From Clostridia bacterium (lineage in GTDB: Bacteria; Bacillota; Clostridia; Oscillospirales; CAG-272): DNA of 64,000 bases. The first letter of the stretch is position 1. Each line of letters opens with the position of its first letter. The position numbers and the translations under genes are program-made. Shown in pieces: positions 11,043-57,808 of this stretch. Below the pieces are notes generated by a model. It was not told the origin of the DNA. It did not search any database and worked only from the letters and a program-made list of their open reading frames with translations. The stretch spans positions 2,889 to 66,888 of the forward strand of contig JAFUQQ010000009.1 in assembly GCA_017472285.1 (NCBI GenBank), in the 5' to 3' direction.

Positions 11043-11071
11043 AGTATATCATTTTTTTCGATGATTTTCAA
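11043..11071 (-). promoter_or_regulatory. sigma-A type promoter for the activase operon
   Basis: Minus strand reads TTGAAA-ATCATCGAAAAAAATGA-TATACT (N17). Confidence 0.5.
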
Positions 11072-50590: not shown

Positions 50591-50602
50591 TTAACATAAA
50601 AT

Positions 50603-50636
50603 TCGGAGAAAACTTTTTTGAAAAAAAGTTTTCTCC
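50603..50636. repeat. palindrome element, CGGAG variant
   Basis: CGGAGAAAACTTTTTTGAAAAAAAGTTTTCTCCG, followed by AACCACTTTCAAAAAACTTT. Confidence 0.75.
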
Positions 50637-50701
50637 GAACCACTTTCAAAAAACTTTATATGTCGATTGGTTGACGCATTTGCGTGCGGCAACTTGCCGC
50701 C

Positions 50702-52171
50702 TTAGTCTTGATTCAGTACGGATACTGCGCCCTTGATGGTCTTTTCATGCGCGAGTTTACCGTATTTATCAACTTCCATCTTGTTCTTTTCGCCGTGTGT
50801 CAGACAGCCTGCGCCGCCGATACAACCGCCCTGACAAGCCATACCTTCAATGAAGTTAAAGCCGAGGGGTTTACGAGCTTTGAGAAGCGCACGAGCTTTC
50901 ATGAGCGCGAGCTTGCAAGCTTCGATACCGTCACATACAACGGAGCTGACTTCAAAGTTTTCGATACCCTGTTCTTTGATTGCCTGAACGACAGCATCGG
51001 AAAGACCGCCGGAACGAGCGAAGATTCTGCCGTAGTAAGAAGCGTTATCGAGGAAATCTTCGGACATTGTGGAAATATCGAGGTCTTTGCTGTCAAAGAG
51101 AGCCTGAAGTTCTTCAAAGGTAATAACGGCATCAACGTAAGGAGCAACGCCGTCTTTCTGGAATTCCATCTTCTTTGCTGTGCAAGGACCGATGAAAGCG
51201 ATCTTCGCTGTGGGATCGGTTTCCTTGATATACTTGGAAAGCGCGCCCATCGGGGACATATTATGAGATATGTACGGAGCGAGATCGGGGAATTCCTTTT
51301 GAACATAGGAAACGAATGCGGGACAGCAAGAGCTGGTAAGGAAGCCTTTTTCCACAAGCTCCTGAGATTCTGTCAAAGCGACCATATCGCCGCCGAGCGC
51401 CGCTTCAACAACGGTATGGAAACCGAGCGCCTTGATACCGGAAACGATCTGACCGTGTTTTGCATAAGAGAACTGGCTGGCAATTGCGGGAGCGATGATC
51501 GCATAAACTTTATAATTCTTGTTATTATCACTCTTCTTGACCATATCGATCACGTCAAGGATATAGGATGCATCCATGATCGCGCCGAACGGGCACTGAT
51601 ATACGCAGGCACCGCAGGAGATGCATTTATTATTGTTGATGGATGCACATTCCTTAACGGGATCTTTCGCAATCGCACCAACCTTACAAGCTCTTTCGCA
51701 AGGACGCTTGAAGTCCTGGATCGCGCCGTAGGGACAAACCTTAGCGCACATACCACAGTTCACACACTTGGATTTGTCGATATGTGCAACGTGGTTTTCA
51801 TCAAAGGTGATCGCGCCTTTCTTACAAACGTCTTCGCAACGGTGAGCAAGACAGCCGCGGCAAACGTCGGTTACTTTATAACCGCCGACGGGACATTCAT
51901 CACAAGCCATTTCAATGACCTGAATGACGTTGGGATTGGAACGGTCGCCGCCCATCGCAAGTTTCACACGTTCGGAAGCAATTGCCTGTTCCTTATGTAC
52001 GCAACAACGCATGGTTGCTTCAATACCCTGTGTGATCATCGCGGGAATATCCGTTACGTGTTCCAAAAGGTCATCTGTCCAAGCGAGGCGTGCGACTTCG
52101 CGAAGAATTTTATACTTCAAATGTTGTACTTTTGTATCAAATTTTCTCACAATCAGTACTCTTCCTTCCAT
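50702..52171 (-). CDS. hydA: [FeFe]-hydrogenase, catalytic type, with N-terminal ferredoxin-like clusters
   Basis: All three H-cluster motifs are intact: 'TSSCCPAF', 'GPCTAKK' and 'EGMACQGGCIGG'. Several CxxCxxCxxxC motifs lie upstream. Confidence 0.85.
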   Translation of the reverse strand: MEGRVLIVRKFDTKVQHLKYKILREVARLAWTDDLLEHVTDIPAMITQGIEATMRCCVHKEQAIASERVKLAMGGDRSNPNVIQVIEMACDECPVGGYKVTDVCRGCLAHRCEDVCKKGAITFDENHVAHIDKSKCVNCGMCAKVCPYGAIQDFKRPCERACKVGAIAKDPVKECASINNNKCISCGACVYQCPFGAIMDASYILDVIDMVKKSDNNKNYKVYAIIAPAIASQFSYAKHGQIVSGIKALGFHTVVEAALGGDMVALTESQELVEKGFLTSSCCPAFVSYVQKEFPDLAPYISHNMSPMGALSKYIKETDPTAKIAFIGPCTAKKMEFQKDGVAPYVDAVITFEELQALFDSKDLDISTMSEDFLDNASYYGRIFARSGGLSDAVVQAIKEQGIENFEVSSVVCDGIEACKLALMKARALLKARKPLGFNFIEGMACQGGCIGGAGCLTHGEKNKMEVDKYGKLAHEKTIKGAVSVLNQD

Positions 52172-52201
52172 AAACTTTTTATATTGCGATCAAAGCCGCC
52201 A

Positions 52202-53374
52202 TCAGAAATAGCTGACTTTGATCTGTTTGCCCATTTTTCTCAGGCAATCCGAAAGCTCGCTGACGAGCTGCATTTTGATATTGAAATTGATCGGCAGATT
52301 GGGGTTCTGGTGGGCGGGGTTCATCGCTCTGCCGACGTAGAAATTGATATCCGTCGCTTCTTCAAAGAGCAGTCGGCTGATGAGCGAAGCACCGTCCTGT
52401 TTATAACTCCAATGCTTATAGGATTCGTTATCCGCGAGATAGTCTTTCGCGTATTCGAGAACGCGGTTGACCGTGATAACACCTTCTGTAACGAGATCGA
52501 CACCGTCAATATGCGCAATCGGCGGAATATCGGGGTCAATGAAATCGATCTCCGTGCGAACGGTCTTTCCGAGATAACGTGCCGCAATCGACGAAGTTGT
52601 ACCGCCGCAGATGATATGTTTGCCTTCCTTGGAGAAGAAAAGCGACATCATCTTATCGCAATCGTCACGGTTCGAGGGCGGACCGAAAAGAAGATTCATC
52701 GGTTCGCGTCGCTTGATACGGATGGTGCAAACAGAGGTATCGTCACCGGGTTTGCCGCCGTAAAGACGGTTACATTCGTCAAGAAGAATCGTGGACAATG
52801 TTTTTGCCGTGAAACCGACATCGTAAAAGGTTTCCATGAAGGTGATGATATCGCGTCTGCCCCAACCGAAATTGAGCGACATACCGACACCCGCATGAAC
52901 ACATCCATCCGACATCGCAATAAAGATATCATTTTCCTGTAATTTGATGCGTGAGCGGTAAATGAGCTTACCGCCGATATTGACCTCTGTTTTGGGAATC
53001 TCAAAGCCTCTGCCGTCGCGGAGCAGGATCACGGCGGGATTATCATATTCCATGATCTCCGCGTATTCGTTGTTCACAAGACGGATGAGGGTAAACGTGG
53101 AATAAGCAACACCGCGAACGGAACAAACGGGCAAGGTTGCCGCGATCGTCGCGATACAGTCATCCAGAGAGAGTCCCTCAGAAACCATCGTTGAAATAAT
53201 TTTTGAGGTCAAGGTTGACAAAATACTCGCCTTAACACCGCTTCCCAAGCCATCGGCAAGAACGATGACCGTCGAGTTTTCGTCCTGCTCGACCACGTCA
53301 ATATGGTCGCCGCAAAGTTCTTCACCGACGTGATTGATACTGCGGTAACCGATATCAGCAAATAGATTATTCAT
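52202..53374 (-). CDS. SpoIIE/PP2C-family protein serine/threonine phosphatase with uncharacterised C-terminal domain
   Basis: 'GEELCGDHIDV...VIVLADGLGSGVKASILS...IAMSDG' PP2C/SpoIIE pattern. Overlaps the hydS stop codon by 8 nt. Confidence 0.75.
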   Translation of the reverse strand: MNNLFADIGYRSINHVGEELCGDHIDVVEQDENSTVIVLADGLGSGVKASILSTLTSKIISTMVSEGLSLDDCIATIAATLPVCSVRGVAYSTFTLIRLVNNEYAEIMEYDNPAVILLRDGRGFEIPKTEVNIGGKLIYRSRIKLQENDIFIAMSDGCVHAGVGMSLNFGWGRRDIITFMETFYDVGFTAKTLSTILLDECNRLYGGKPGDDTSVCTIRIKRREPMNLLFGPPSNRDDCDKMMSLFFSKEGKHIICGGTTSSIAARYLGKTVRTEIDFIDPDIPPIAHIDGVDLVTEGVITVNRVLEYAKDYLADNESYKHWSYKQDGASLISRLLFEEATDINFYVGRAMNPAHQNPNLPINFNIKMQLVSELSDCLRKMGKQIKVSYF

Positions 53375-55040
53375 CTGCGATCGACTCCTTCAGTTTTGTC
53401 AGTGCAATTTTTGTTTCCGCGGCAGTTTCGCCGAGAAGCGATGCGATCTCCTGAACGATACGCATCTGATTCTGAACGACCTTATCCGCGATCTCAATGG
53501 TTTGTCTGTTGACTTCTTCTTTCTTTTCTCTTGCGGTTTCTTCGTCGGTCACGTCACGCATGATACAGATCAGGATGCGGGATTCCCTGTCGAAGATAAC
53601 GGTCTGGTCAACGTAGCGGTCGTATTCCGCAAGATAAACGTGCATACCCGAAACGCCTCTACCCGTTCTCTTAACGTCCATAAAGAGTTTGGGATCCATA
53701 ATACGTACCACAGGTTCGCCGAGAACGTCGGATTCACGCATGATGTTCATCATACGGAGTGCCGCGCGGTTGATCTGCTGCACTTCCAGATTTTCGTTGA
53801 GAACGAAAACGCCGTTGGGGGTATTTTTGATAATGGTATCGGAGAAGTTTTCCGCTCTGTCCTTGAGGAAAGGCAGACACATGGAGATCTCCGCTTTGCC
53901 CTGATAGATAGCAATGGCTTTATCACGGCAAGTATCGTAACCGCAAGAGCCGCAGTTCAGCTCATCCGCGGGTTTATTTTTACCCATCTGACGCATGATA
54001 TCCATGATCTCATACTCTGTGGGCATGGTAGTATTGCGTTCGATGCACTCAAAACGCTTTCTGAGAAGCTCGGGATCAGGCTGCTCAACCTCAAAATCAT
54101 TCTTGCCTGCATATTCGGCAACAGCAAGATAACCGCGAAGATGAGAACGGCTATGCTTTTCCATAACGGGACCGCCGACACAACCGCCGACACAGGCAGA
54201 CATTTCGATAAAGCATTTCTGGAGCTTACCCGCTTCGATATCGCGGAGGGCTGCCATGCAGTTTTCCACACCGTCTACGGAAAGGAAGGTATAACCAAAC
54301 TTTCCGATATCCATCGTTTTGATGATACCGCCGGGGGTCGGGAAAAGTCTTGTGAGGCTGCCTGGATTTTCATCCGTTTTCTGTTCGGGTGTCACGCGGA
54401 CTTTTTCAAACCAATCGCTGAGTTCTTCAAAAGTGAGAACGGCATCCACGTCTTTGTAATAATCCGCTTCGTCTTTTTTGGCAACGCAAGGACCGATGAA
54501 AACGACCTTTGCGTTCGGGATTCTGCGCTTGATATCCGCGGCGTGCGCCTGCATGGGACTCTTAACGTCCGCAAGGAAGGGCAATTCCGCGGGGAAATAT
54601 TTCTGGATCAAGAGATTGACGGAATGGCAAGCGGAGGAAATCAGAACGTCCTGCGTGCCTTCCTCTAAAATACGTTCGTATTCTTTTTTGACCATTGTCG
54701 CGCCGATGGCTGTTTCCTCGGCATCGGTAAAACCGATCTTTTTGAGTGCCTCACGCATGGATTCGATGCCAACGCCCTCATAATTTGCGATAAAGGAAGG
54801 CGCAAGGCTCGCAATCACGGGATCCGTGCCCATCATCAGCGTACGGACGACCTCCGTACTGTCTGCGATCTGCTTTGCATTCTGCGGACAAACGACGAAA
54901 CAGCGTCCGCAAAGAATACATTCGTCCTTGACGATATGCGCTTGGTTACCGGAGAATCGGATCGATTTCACCGGACAATGGCGAATACACTTATAGCAAT
55001 TTTTACAGTTGGACTTTTTCAGCTTCAAAAATTCTGCCAT
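53367..55040 (-). CDS. hydS: sensory-type (group C, HydS-like) [FeFe]-hydrogenase with C-terminal PAS domain
   Basis: Contains 2x[4Fe-4S] motifs. The L1 motif is altered to 'SSACHS' (the first Cys of TSCCP is Ala). L2 'GPCVAKK' and L3 'EMSACVGGCVGGP' are intact. An extra 'CGSCGYDTC..C' motif is followed by a PAS-like 'TPNGVFVLNENLEVQQINRAAL'. Confidence 0.8.
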   Translation of the reverse strand: MAEFLKLKKSNCKNCYKCIRHCPVKSIRFSGNQAHIVKDECILCGRCFVVCPQNAKQIADSTEVVRTLMMGTDPVIASLAPSFIANYEGVGIESMREALKKIGFTDAEETAIGATMVKKEYERILEEGTQDVLISSACHSVNLLIQKYFPAELPFLADVKSPMQAHAADIKRRIPNAKVVFIGPCVAKKDEADYYKDVDAVLTFEELSDWFEKVRVTPEQKTDENPGSLTRLFPTPGGIIKTMDIGKFGYTFLSVDGVENCMAALRDIEAGKLQKCFIEMSACVGGCVGGPVMEKHSRSHLRGYLAVAEYAGKNDFEVEQPDPELLRKRFECIERNTTMPTEYEIMDIMRQMGKNKPADELNCGSCGYDTCRDKAIAIYQGKAEISMCLPFLKDRAENFSDTIIKNTPNGVFVLNENLEVQQINRAALRMMNIMRESDVLGEPVVRIMDPKLFMDVKRTGRGVSGMHVYLAEYDRYVDQTVIFDRESRILICIMRDVTDEETAREKKEEVNRQTIEIADKVVQNQMRIVQEIASLLGETAAETKIALTKLKESIADE

Positions 55041-55052
55041 GGCCGCTTCTCC

Positions 55053-55304
55053 TTACATATTGAGTCTTCCGAGTATTTGTTCCTTGAAAAAAGCATCAAA
55101 ACCTCTGACCGTAACGCCCGTACAAACGTCATCATCGATCTGAATGGTGACGCCTTCTCTATTGCATTTTCCGATACAAAAGCTTCCCGCGAGAATGACC
55201 TCATCCTCCAGCGCATATTCCTCGACAGCCTTTTTCATCAAATCGACGATCTCATGCGAGCCTTTGATATGGCATGAACTACCGACACAAATCTGAACGA
55301 TCAT
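55053..55304 (-). CDS. thioredoxin-like [2Fe-2S] ferredoxin domain protein
   Basis: 'CVGSSCHIKGS...SFCIGKCNRE' (Cx4C...Cx3C, NuoE/HydC-like). Confidence 0.75.
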   Translation of the reverse strand: MIVQICVGSSCHIKGSHEIVDLMKKAVEEYALEDEVILAGSFCIGKCNREGVTIQIDDDVCTGVTVRGFDAFFKEQILGRLNM

Positions 55305-55348
55305 TTTGTTTCTCCTTTACGATTTCGGGATTGTACCGGCATCTGCGG

Positions 55349-55594
55349 TTATGCTTTTGCCAAAATTTCGGTTTTGAAGAATTCTTCGACAGTATCGGGG
55401 CTTACGGAGAAAAATGTGTCGCCAACGGTAACGCAAACACCCTTCTGGCATTCGCCAAGACAGAATGTGCCTGCAACTTCAACTTTATCTTCAAGATTGT
55501 GATCTGCGATCATTTCGCGGATTGCTTCAACGACCTGACGGGAGCCTTTGAGGTGGCAGGAGCTTCCGATACATACAGTAACTCTGGTTTTCAT
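55349..55594 (-). CDS. thioredoxin-like [2Fe-2S] ferredoxin domain protein (paralog)
   Basis: 'CIGSSCHLKGS...TFCLGECQKG'. Tandem paralog of 55053-55304. Confidence 0.75.
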   Translation of the reverse strand: MKTRVTVCIGSSCHLKGSRQVVEAIREMIADHNLEDKVEVAGTFCLGECQKGVCVTVGDTFFSVSPDTVEEFFKTEILAKA

Positions 55595-55644
55595 AAAAAC
55601 AATAATCCTTTCGTGGCTTGTGAAAATGTATTTTTAACGTTTTT

Positions 55645-56394
55645 TTAGATATTCAGATATTCGACCGATTTTGCGAGATTCAGAAGGAATTCCTTCTTTG
55701 CACCTTCGGTCTTTGCGGATTTGGATGCCGCCGCAACGGGAATCCATTTGAGAACGGCTTCTTTTTCAACAGCGCTCTTTGCGCAATAGAGATCGAGATA
55801 TTTTTCAGCTTCGGTGTCTTTTCCATCAAGCTTGAAAAGAATATAAGTGATCGCCGCGTCTACGTTGGGATTGCCCTGATTGGTATGGGACCAATCAAGG
55901 ATATAGGGCGTACCGTCTGCCTTAATGATGATGTTTTCGGGTTTGAAGTCGCAATGGCAAACGACGTTGGTCACGCCAAGCTCACGGAGTCTGAGCTGAA
56001 GATCGTAACGGATCGTGGCTTTGAGATCGGCTGCCGAGATCTTTCTCGTCATCTTATCCTTGAGCGTTGTGAGGAGAGATGCTTTTTTCGTATGGATCTC
56101 CTTCTGCAAGGAAACGAAAAGTTCGAGATACTCGTCACATTTTTCGGGCTGTTCGCTCATCAGTTCCGCGAGATTTTTACCCTCGATGTATTCCATCATG
56201 AGCGCCCATTTTCCGTCGACGGTACCGACCTTGAGAATCTTCGGGATGTTAAGACCGGTTTCTTCGATTCTCGCTTGATTGAGTCCTTCTGTGAGAATTT
56301 CGGATTTCGACCAATCATTTTCATCAAATACCTTGATCAAAGTGTCGCCGTCCTGATAAACAACCTTACCTTGTCTGACTGCAATGGTATTCAT
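55645..56394 (-). CDS. small protein-kinase-like / aminoglycoside-phosphotransferase-fold protein
   Basis: The catalytic-loop-like 'HCDFKPENIII' and 'ILDWSH' resemble the HRDxKPEN and DFG motifs of Hanks/APH-fold kinases. Candidate ATP-binding Lys in 'DTLIKVF'. Confidence 0.65.
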   Translation of the reverse strand: MNTIAVRQGKVVYQDGDTLIKVFDENDWSKSEILTEGLNQARIEETGLNIPKILKVGTVDGKWALMMEYIEGKNLAELMSEQPEKCDEYLELFVSLQKEIHTKKASLLTTLKDKMTRKISAADLKATIRYDLQLRLRELGVTNVVCHCDFKPENIIIKADGTPYILDWSHTNQGNPNVDAAITYILFKLDGKDTEAEKYLDLYCAKSAVEKEAVLKWIPVAAASKSAKTEGAKKEFLLNLAKSVEYLNI

Positions 56395-56489
56395 TGAATA
56401 AACCTCCTTAATAAGTTGTTCATTTCATAATATGATTTTCTATGGGCATTTTTCCGTCAAGTTGGAATGCGCCCATTATTTCATTTAAC

Positions 56490-56518
56490 AGTATATCATT
56501 TTTTTTTGATAATTTCAA
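56490..56518 (-). promoter_or_regulatory. promoter of the kinase-hydS-hydA operon
   Basis: Minus strand reads TTGAAA-TTATCAAAAAAAAATGA-TATACT (N17). Near-identical to the promoter at 11043-11071. Confidence 0.5.
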
Positions 56519-56683: not shown

Positions 56684-57808
56684 ATGAATGAAAAAGAAAT
56701 TTCCGAAATCCGCCGCCGTTTCCGCGCGGATAAAACCAATATATCTAAAATCCGCGGCTGTTACGTCAACGCAGACAAAGAGATCAGCTCCGAATTTTTT
56801 GAATCTCTTGGGCTGATGGCAACCGATCACGTCGAAGATATCTTATCCCGCATGAAAAAAGTTCTTTCGGGAACGCTCGGCAAAAATCTCATGGAGATCG
56901 AATTTTCGACACAGCAGGTCCTTGAATCTCCCGAACATCAGCTTTTGACCACCCTTCGCAAAAGTGCGCTTTCCGATGATACCGCCGTCAAGGAATTTTA
57001 TGAAAAAGTCCGCACTACCCTTGCCATCGATAGTCCGTATCTCATCCTGCTCGCAAGCGATACGTACGATATCCCCGCCTATCACAAAGATGATATGGAA
57101 AGTGACGAATCTACAGAATCCTTTTCTTATTTCGTCTGCGCGATCTGTCCCGTCAAGCTGACGAAACCCTCGCTCGGTTATCATACGCATGAAAATAAAT
57201 TCTGCAATATTCGTCCCGATTGGGCAGTTTCCACACCTGAGATCGGTTTCATGTTCCCCGTCTATGAAGACCGCGGCGCAAATATCTATAAAACGCTCTA
57301 TTATACCCATAGCGCATCTGAAAGTCAAAATCCACTTGCCGAGATCTTGTTCGCAAACGAGATCCCCATGCCCGCAACCGAGCAGAAAGAAACCTTCCAA
57401 GCTATCCTGAGCGATACGATCGCGGAAGATTGCAATATCAGCGTCGTCAAAGCCGTCCACAGCGAGCTTGCAGAAATCATTGAAGAACATAAAAACACCA
57501 AAAAAGAAGAACCTCTCGTGATCGATAAACAAACGGTCAAAGACGTTCTGACTGCCTGCGCCGTGCCCGAAGAACGCATCCAAGCTTTCGAAGAACGCTT
57601 CGATGAAGAATTTGGCGAACAGACGGAGATCAGTCCCGTCAACCTCGTAAATAAACAGCTCGAAGTCAATACGGCTGATGTTTCCATCAAAATCAATGCC
57701 GACCGAGGCGATCTCGTTCGTACACGCATCATTGACGGAGTCAAATACATACTCATCCGCGCGGATGAATCTGTCGAAGTCAATGGTGTTCGCATTGCCA
57801 TCAATTAA
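56684..57808 (+). CDS. DUF4317-like hypothetical protein
   Basis: 374 aa. The N-terminal 'MNEKEISEIRRRFRADKTNISKIRGCYVN' matches my recollection of the DUF4317 family in Clostridia. No other motif recognised. Confidence 0.55.
   Translation: MNEKEISEIRRRFRADKTNISKIRGCYVNADKEISSEFFESLGLMATDHVEDILSRMKKVLSGTLGKNLMEIEFSTQQVLESPEHQLLTTLRKSALSDDTAVKEFYEKVRTTLAIDSPYLILLASDTYDIPAYHKDDMESDESTESFSYFVCAICPVKLTKPSLGYHTHENKFCNIRPDWAVSTPEIGFMFPVYEDRGANIYKTLYYTHSASESQNPLAEILFANEIPMPATEQKETFQAILSDTIAEDCNISVVKAVHSELAEIIEEHKNTKKEEPLVIDKQTVKDVLTACAVPEERIQAFEERFDEEFGEQTEISPVNLVNKQLEVNTADVSIKINADRGDLVRTRIIDGVKYILIRADESVEVNGVRIAIN

Follow-up and report, generated by a model that had tools for sequence, protein, structure and literature searches.

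A clostridial [FeFe] hydrogenase cluster with a putative H2 sensor, a PP2C phosphatase, and an APH-fold kinase-like protein, lacking adhE

Results

Six genes in a predicted operon

We analyzed a 64,000-nucleotide stretch of DNA (the window) from a Clostridia bacterium (Oscillospirales, CAG-272; GenBank assembly GCA_017472285.1, contig JAFUQQ010000009.1, positions 2,889 to 66,888 of the forward strand). Our subject is a cluster of six genes in this window that encode, in order, a kinase-like phosphotransferase (here, the kinase), two thioredoxin-like ferredoxins, the [FeFe] hydrogenase HydS, a PP2C phosphatase, and a second [FeFe] hydrogenase (Table 1). Domains were assigned by Pfam and NCBIfam scans with curated cutoffs, and both hydrogenases were classed by NCBIfam scoring combined with orthology. 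An initial annotation, made from the letters of this DNA alone, had described six codirectional, tightly spaced genes, and all of these open reading frames were recovered where it had placed them. They lie on the minus strand, run in one direction, and are separated in gene order by 50, 44, 12, −8, and 30 nt. One promoter-like site precedes them and one terminator-like hairpin follows, and no strong internal terminators were found inside the six-gene stretch.

Table 1. Features of the six-gene cluster and its boundaries (positions in the window).
Feature	Position	Strand	Supporting data
Promoter-like site	56490..56518	-	TTGAAA-17-TATACT, extended TG; 10/12 consensus matches; ~95 nt 5' of kinase start
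APH-fold phosphotransferase (kinase), 249 aa	55645..56394	-	PF01636, 54.3 bits (cutoff 23.2)
Thioredoxin-like [2Fe-2S] ferredoxin 1, 81 aa	55349..55594	-	PF01257, 33.6 bits; Cys 8, 13, 45, 49
Thioredoxin-like [2Fe-2S] ferredoxin 2, 83 aa	55053..55304	-	PF01257, 29.9 bits; Cys 6, 11, 43, 47
HydS, 557 aa, group C (M2f) putative sensory [FeFe] hydrogenase	53367..55040	-	Fe_hyd_lg_C + PF04060 + PAS
PP2C (SpoIIE-family) phosphatase, 390 aa	52202..53374	-	PF07228, 50.4 bits (cutoff 25)
Group B [FeFe] hydrogenase (HydA2/HfsD type), 489 aa	50702..52171	-	TIGR04105, 543 bits (cutoff 450)
Terminator-like hairpin, 19-bp stem, operon end	50600..50641	-	Sequence

Does the cluster have a characterized counterpart? 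A protein search of a plasmid collection found a match on the Ruminococcus albus 7 megaplasmid pRUMAL01. The genes there (RUMAL_RS17350-17385) are arranged as Rex, adhE, phosphotransferase (249 aa), fdx, fdx, HydS, SpoIIE, and HydA2, beside a LysR gene, and the six genes of the window correspond to the last six in the same order and orientation. The R. albus 7 cluster also has the duplicated ferredoxin and the 8-nt overlap between hydS and the PP2C gene. Identities are 50% for the kinase (RUMAL_RS17360), 65% and 56% for ferredoxins 1 and 2, 67% for HydS, 73% for PP2C, and 69% for the hydrogenase. Judged from sequence, the six genes thus appear to be a real operon and the adhE-less counterpart of the R. 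albus 7 H2-sensing hydrogenase cluster. The two differ at their heads: the R. albus 7 cluster begins with rex and adhE, whereas the window contains neither and has a divergent DUF4317 gene instead. That gene (56684-57808, plus strand; PF14199, 435 bits) diverges from the operon promoter region and occupies the position that adhE has in other genera.

In R. albus, the eight-gene cluster was downregulated 111-fold in coculture with an H2 consumer, and the group C hydrogenase with its phosphatase subunit was proposed as the sensor (Greening 2019, PMC6776011). Since the same six-gene order has been published for R. albus 7, the gene combination is not new, contrary to the initial annotation. Signaling to the adjacent kinase had also been proposed already by Zheng 2014, as cited in PMC5707799; the content of that study is given here as relayed in PMC5707799, PMC6776011, and PMC11837493.

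HydS has the architecture and active-site changes of a group C enzyme

The H-domain of HydS (PF02906, 168 bits) provides the H-cluster ligands C138 (L1), C185 (L2), and C283 and C287 (L3), within the motifs SSACHS, GPCVAK, and EMSACVGGCVGGP, respectively. It is preceded by two N-terminal [4Fe-4S] motifs (Cys 12/15/18/22 and 41/44/47/51) and followed by an extra motif, C363-x2-C366-x4-C371-x16-C388 (PF04060 "FeS," 41.8 bits), and by a PAS domain (PF00989, 24.5 bits versus a cutoff of 22.6). The hydrogenase motifs, the extra Cys4 motif, the PAS domain, and the overlap with the PP2C gene had all been noted in the initial annotation, and the scans bear them out. The definition of subclass M2f includes Cx2Cx4Cx16C together with PAS (PMC8163306). 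The Thermotoga maritima HydS (group C, M2f) and the Thermoanaerobacter mathranii HydS (group D, M2e) share with the window protein the paired N-terminal [4Fe-4S] motifs, the H-domain, and Cx2Cx4Cx16C; its PAS domain is as in M2f.

At the positions equivalent to C299, M353, and M497 of CpI, the window HydS carries Ala, Gly, and Ser (SSACHS, GPCVAK, and EMSAC). In the T. maritima sensor, M353 is likewise Gly and M497 Ser, and the proton-relay Cys is not conserved in the subclass (PMC8163306); compared by these reported residues, the two proteins share the loss of C299 and both Met substitutions. On the basis of its architecture and altered active-site residues, HydS fits group C (M2f), with a sensory role that is putative. 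The earlier description of a HydS-like sensory hydrogenase agrees with this assignment and with the full-length identity to R. albus 7 HydS. The PDB contained no structure of a group C hydrogenase, and the best sequence matches there were group A H-domains (~1e-17).

The Cys-to-Ala change is confined to a narrow clade. All nine database proteins at least 88% identical to the window HydS carry SSACHS and ...VGGC... in L3, and in the 111 listed relatives with identities up to 84%, the motifs are uniformly S/TSCCHS and ...GSC.... Outside the clade at 88% identity or above, neither the Cys-to-Ala nor the L3 Ser-to-Gly change is thus fixed. R. albus HydS, with SSCCHS and Ser in L3, differs from the window protein at both sites. 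The codon change (TGY to GCT) requires two substitutions and is therefore not a sequencing error. Although SSACHS is present in the window as first annotated, it is not the family norm, with the proton-relay Cys retained in 111 of 120 close HydS homologues.

A second HydS clade, ~40 to 44% identical, has the L1 motif TSACPA and the L3 motif E(I/M/L)NCCE(Y/H/F)AC. Its loci (L037, L039, L043, L044, L046, L049, L050, L054, L065, L066, and L094) keep the cluster order from adhE through kinase, fdx, hydS, and PP2C to the hydrogenase; they have only one ferredoxin gene, and the hydrogenase is often set off by ~500 nt.

PP2C phosphatase, ferredoxins, and group B hydrogenase

The start of the PP2C gene overlaps the hydS stop by 8 nt, and PP2C follows hydS in every sufficiently sequenced locus; the pair was never found separated. 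This coupling, upstream of a catalytic hydrogenase that TIGR04105 assigns to group B, matches what had been annotated. The metal-binding Asp residues are conserved: D23, D41-G42, D156-G157, and D211-D212 show no variation in 27 orthologues. The structure model (predicted local distance difference test [pLDDT], 84) gave SpoIIE (5mqh, E = 4e-15; 5ucg), RsbU/RsbW, and RsbX, of the partner-switching subfamily, as the best Foldseek matches. The phosphatase domain covers residues 1 to 222, and a second alpha/beta domain (residues 225 to 390) is extremely conserved; its CGGT.S loop does not vary, and it has a conserved N(P/A)AHQ motif. No Pfam family matched residues 225 to 390. Against the PDB, a profile of this domain matched phosphoheptose isomerase weakly (E = 7e-4) and across just 57 positions, and it did not recognize the SIS_2 proteins of the lineage; an SIS-like identity was not confirmed. 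Foldseek with the whole model gave PP2C matches only.

Both ferredoxins carry CX4C...CX3C and are ~38% identical to each other. A gene of the ferredoxin 1 type lies directly 5' of hydS in all hydS loci examined, and the second copy occurs in many, not all, orthologous clusters.

The group B hydrogenase has canonical motifs (SSCCP, GPCTAK, and MACQGGCIGG). Its true start may be GTG 52150, seven codons downstream of the annotated ATG, since the ATG lacks a Shine-Dalgarno sequence and orthologues align only from residues 8 to 9; this GTG lies ~8 nt behind GGAAGGAAG (window 52148-52171). The R. albus 7 HydA2 (L117:9844-11280) scores 577 bits on the same group B model, TIGR04105 (cutoff 450); Greening 2019 (PMC6776011) labeled it group A1.

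The kinase has an APH/choline kinase-like fold

The residues H147, D149, N154, D167, and K21 of the kinase are invariant across orthologues, so that the HxDxxxxN motif and the metal-binding Asp are intact. The AlphaFold2 model (pLDDT, 92) is closest in Foldseek to APH(3')-Ia/IIa/IIIa, the choline kinase LicA, and YtaA, at template modeling (TM) scores of ~0.6 to 0.65 and 12 to 18% identity. With APH(3') and LicA (TM, ~0.63) the protein has the fold, the Brenner motif HxDxxxxN, and the Mg-binding Asp in common; it differs in its low identity and in its context, which is adhE or hydS rather than antibiotic or lipid genes.

Is it a Ser/Thr kinase? The initial annotation had placed it in a Ser/Thr-phosphorylation circuit, and a kinase-like fold, of the APH kind, is indeed predicted. 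A Hanks-type Ser/Thr protein kinase was rejected: the Pkinase family PF00069 scored 25.6 bits, below its cutoff of 31.7 and over residues 143 to 177 only, position 151 varies among K, S, N, R, and E in orthologues, and Foldseek returned APH and choline kinases. The Hanks-like look of HCDFKPEN therefore appears to be partly coincidental. The model places the kinase in the small-molecule branch (APH/choline kinase) of the kinase-like fold, and its substrate may be of either class, protein or metabolite. Aminoglycoside resistance of the APH(3') type was likewise rejected; the kinase scored 29 bits on NF033068 against a cutoff of 205 and is therefore not a resistance enzyme. It is present in a single copy in its own genome.

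The kinase is separable from hydS and tied to adhE

We compared ~110 loci overall; counts were made over 61 related genomes and over 80 named loci with 10-kb flanks. A protein search retrieved more than 7,500 members of this large kinase family, and at least 591 GTDB species genomes contain a relative. Of the 61 related genomes, 23 carry kinase and hydS together, always as neighbors where both loci could be read. Another 10 carry hydS without the kinase, 5 the kinase without hydS, and 23 lack both. The survey thus links kinase and hydS in other genomes, a linkage whose absence would have counted against the initial annotation. The order kinase, one or two fdx, hydS, PP2C, group B hydrogenase was found at ~54 of the 80 named loci, and at the remaining ~26 the kinase occurs without hydS.

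What accompanies the kinase where hydS is missing? At these loci, a codirectional adhE (~1,400 bits versus NF010378) lies directly upstream. Of the 78 loci with a readable upstream side, 76 have adhE ahead of the kinase; among these 76, hydS lies downstream in 45 and is missing from 26, and 5 loci are cut off. Neither HydS nor an orthologue of the window PP2C was found in the genomes that have only adhE and kinase. Conversely, hydS relatives without the kinase have a plain fdx, hydS, PP2C, hydrogenase order with no bifunctional adhE alongside. In a maximum-likelihood kinase tree, the kinases of adhE-only loci and of full clusters are interleaved; parsimony requires 11 changes of context, at least 6 of them forced by well-supported branches. 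The kinases form one orthologous family, and the sensor module was repeatedly lost or gained while adhE and kinase were kept together.

The kinase can occur without HydS and PP2C, and hydS-PP2C without the kinase; a matched kinase/phosphatase pair, as the initial annotation had proposed, is therefore not the general rule. The comparison points instead to the kinase as a separable accessory, tied most tightly to adhE, and to HydS plus PP2C (with a ferredoxin) as the invariant signaling unit.

Two loci depart from these arrangements. One (L051:1462-5743) has adhE, kinase, one thioredoxin-like ferredoxin, and a group B hydrogenase, with no hydS or PP2C between, and its contig ends inside the hydrogenase. 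At the other (G042:C2:21009-21728, L026), an in-frame TGA interrupts a kinase orthologue, which is followed by one ferredoxin in a genome lacking hydS and the window-type PP2C; the orthologue is possibly a decaying copy.

The kinase-less form resembles a described operon, Thermoanaerobacterium hfsABCD (Shaw 2009; Eminoglu 2017; AEM 2025), which encodes a small Fe-S protein, the PAS-hydrogenase HfsB, the Ser phosphatase HfsC, and the ferredoxin-linked hydrogenase HfsD, in the core order of the window. In the literature, HfsB is taken to correspond to HydS and HfsD to HydA2; HfsA is likened to the thioredoxin-like ferredoxins by position only. Compared with hfsABCD, the window has the APH-fold kinase and the second ferredoxin in addition, and its kinase-less relatives show an hfsABCD-like four- or five-gene form. 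In Thermoanaerobacterium saccharolyticum, deletion of hfsA or hfsB raises AdhE activity, an effect that requires hfsC and hfsD (PMC5707799).

The kinase in a genus without AdhE

All nine kinase loci from the genus of the window lack adhE, whereas nearly all other genera have it. A canonical bifunctional AdhE was found in none of the 16 species genomes of the genus, which have separate iron-containing alcohol dehydrogenase (Fe-ADH) and aldehyde dehydrogenase (ALDH) genes only, and the kinase is kept in 10 of the 16. Ratios of nonsynonymous to synonymous substitution (dN/dS) within the genus are ~0.07 to 0.10 for the kinase, 0.06 to 0.08 for hydS, and 0.09 to 0.10 for fdx, with dS near saturation. 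Decay of the kinase in the genus was rejected on these values and its intact catalytic residues. The kinase thus appears to be under purifying selection and to function here without AdhE; retained at a dN/dS of ~0.1 in a genus without AdhE, it would therefore act on something besides AdhE.

The genus sits on a long branch of the kinase tree (stem 0.63 and tips 0.5 to 0.65; the median tip in the tree is 0.1 long). At 12 positions with at least 90% invariance elsewhere, the genus has fixed a different residue; these switches include G148C in the catalytic loop (HGD to HCD) and several in the C-lobe. The long branch and the 12 switches are consistent with a change of partner and do not prove it.

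The genome that contains the window also encodes an 877-aa protein of reversed AdhE order (G000:C23:24021-26651, minus strand; L116:43-2676, minus strand), with an N-terminal Fe-ADH and a C-terminal ALDH. Its halves match separate genes on different contigs in other species of the genus, and the protein could stem from a recent fusion or from a join made in assembly. Because the fusion is limited to this genome and absent from the other kinase-bearing species of the genus, we rejected it as the kinase's substitute for AdhE.

Upstream sequences and candidate regulators

No Rex-box-like site was found near the operon promoter; the window holds three weak matches, below chance expectation, none of them close. 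Nor was a Rex or LysR gene found within the window, and Rex control of the operon was rejected on both counts. The promoters at 56490-56518 and 11043-11071 have the -35 hexamer, an A-run, and AAAAAAATGATATACT in common. An extended operator shared by the operon promoter and the operon at ~11050 was rejected, as the likeness ends within ~30 nt.

Discussion

What might this operon do? We consider it fairly probable that it is an adhE-less copy of the Clostridia "H2-sensor/electron-sink" cluster and that it works as follows. The group B hydrogenase would vent reduced ferredoxin as H2. HydS would bind H2 at an H-cluster with a disabled proton relay and report H2 with no turnover; we propose reporting rather than turnover because C299, M353, and M497 are replaced by Ala, Gly, and Ser. 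The redox state would travel through the accessory clusters of HydS to the Cx2Cx4Cx16C cluster and the PAS domain, with the two thioredoxin-like [2Fe-2S] proteins as candidate electron partners of HydS. The PAS domain would modulate the translationally coupled PP2C, which would dephosphorylate some phosphoprotein and so set the expression or activity of electron-sink enzymes. The APH-fold kinase would be an accessory module, adhE associated across Clostridia and here kept and partly remodeled for a role that does not involve AdhE. We infer each of these signal-transfer steps, and likewise the targets of both PP2C and the kinase. What has been shown in relatives is the ~100-fold H2-dependent regulation of the R. 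albus cluster, the regulatory phenotype of hfsA/B versus hfsC/D deletions in T. saccharolyticum, and, for group C/D enzymes, sensor-like spectroscopy.

Several points weigh against this scheme. The experimental support comes from other organisms. The locus has no detected Rex box or regulator gene, and no candidate target of PP2C or the kinase is visible among the operon genes. The HydS family may keep catalytic activity, because most close orthologues retain the proton-relay Cys, and HfsABC was suggested to make a working hydrogenase without HfsD (2026 paper, PMC13277313). The kinase may stand outside any protein phospho-switch, because its modeled fold is nearest to small-molecule kinases.

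One potential explanation for the kinase, which we regard as possible although doubtful, is that it is directed at AdhE or the ethanol pathway, as a protein kinase or a small-molecule kinase, and that the copy in this genus is a remodeled leftover with a new substrate. The position of adhE, immediately upstream and codirectional at nearly all readable loci, including the 26 that lack hydS, would be accounted for, as would the persistence of this pairing while the sensor module came and went repeatedly. The long stem and the 12 fixed switches coincide exactly with the adhE-less genus, and hfs mutations alter AdhE activity more than mRNA accounts for (PMC5707799). However, the link between hfs and adhE in T. 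saccharolyticum comes with a four-gene hfs operon in which the kinase is unreported, and a genus without AdhE keeps the kinase under constraint, which argues that AdhE cannot be its sole partner.

We find it unlikely that kinase and PP2C are a matched switch, opposing each other on one phosphoprotein with HydS setting the balance by H2. The kinase heads a hydS-PP2C operon in about two-thirds of loci, its catalytic residues are invariant, and the genus without adhE keeps it in the operon under purifying selection. In addition, phosphatases of the SpoIIE/RsbU partner-switch subfamily, to which PP2C belongs, are always opposed to a dedicated kinase. As is generally known, though, those partner kinases are GHKL ATPases and not APH-fold proteins, and the fold found here is nearest to small-molecule kinases. 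The operon also lacks a STAS-type substrate gene. The kinase occurs with adhE where HydS and the window-type PP2C are missing, and 10 of 33 hydS-bearing relatives, plus the hfsABCD type, do without such a kinase.

Less likely again is a module rewired in this genus, in which the kinase, with its 12 fixed switches (mostly in the C-lobe), and the HydS-gated PP2C would share a target other than AdhE, such as a regulator, a ferredoxin, or the group B hydrogenase, and the HydS of the clade would have become a pure sensor by losing the proton-relay Cys that sister species keep. Finally, we think it improbable that HydS, the ferredoxins, and the group B enzyme make up a multisubunit catalytic hydrogenase (Hfs) that PAS and PP2C merely fine-tune, with HydS not primarily a sensor: the proton-relay Cys held by most close orthologues, the constant adjacency of the ferredoxins, the reduced hydrogenase activity after deletion of the whole hfs operon, and the proposed function of HfsABC without HfsD speak for it, whereas deletion of hfsB increased hydrogenase activity instead of reducing it, the window clade combines Cys-to-Ala with M353G and M497S, the substitutions of the low-turnover T. 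maritima sensor (PMC8163306), and strict coupling to PP2C and PAS is hard to square with a purely catalytic subunit.

The scheme that we favor, an adhE-less sensor and electron-sink cluster with an accessory kinase, touches on a general question: by what route do putative H2-sensing [FeFe] hydrogenases relay their signal, and on what does the partner PP2C act? The answer matters for H2 and methane balance in the rumen and gut and for the engineering of ethanol yield. The value of this locus is comparative. It suggests that the kinase is separable, associated with adhE, and not the obligate partner of PP2C, and that it works without AdhE in at least one genus. Close species carry Cys and Ala versions of the sensor's proton-relay residue, and all these points together narrow the hypotheses for bench testing. 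If the module has indeed been rewired in this genus, the lineage would be a natural minimal system for group C signaling, with Cys and Ala variants side by side.

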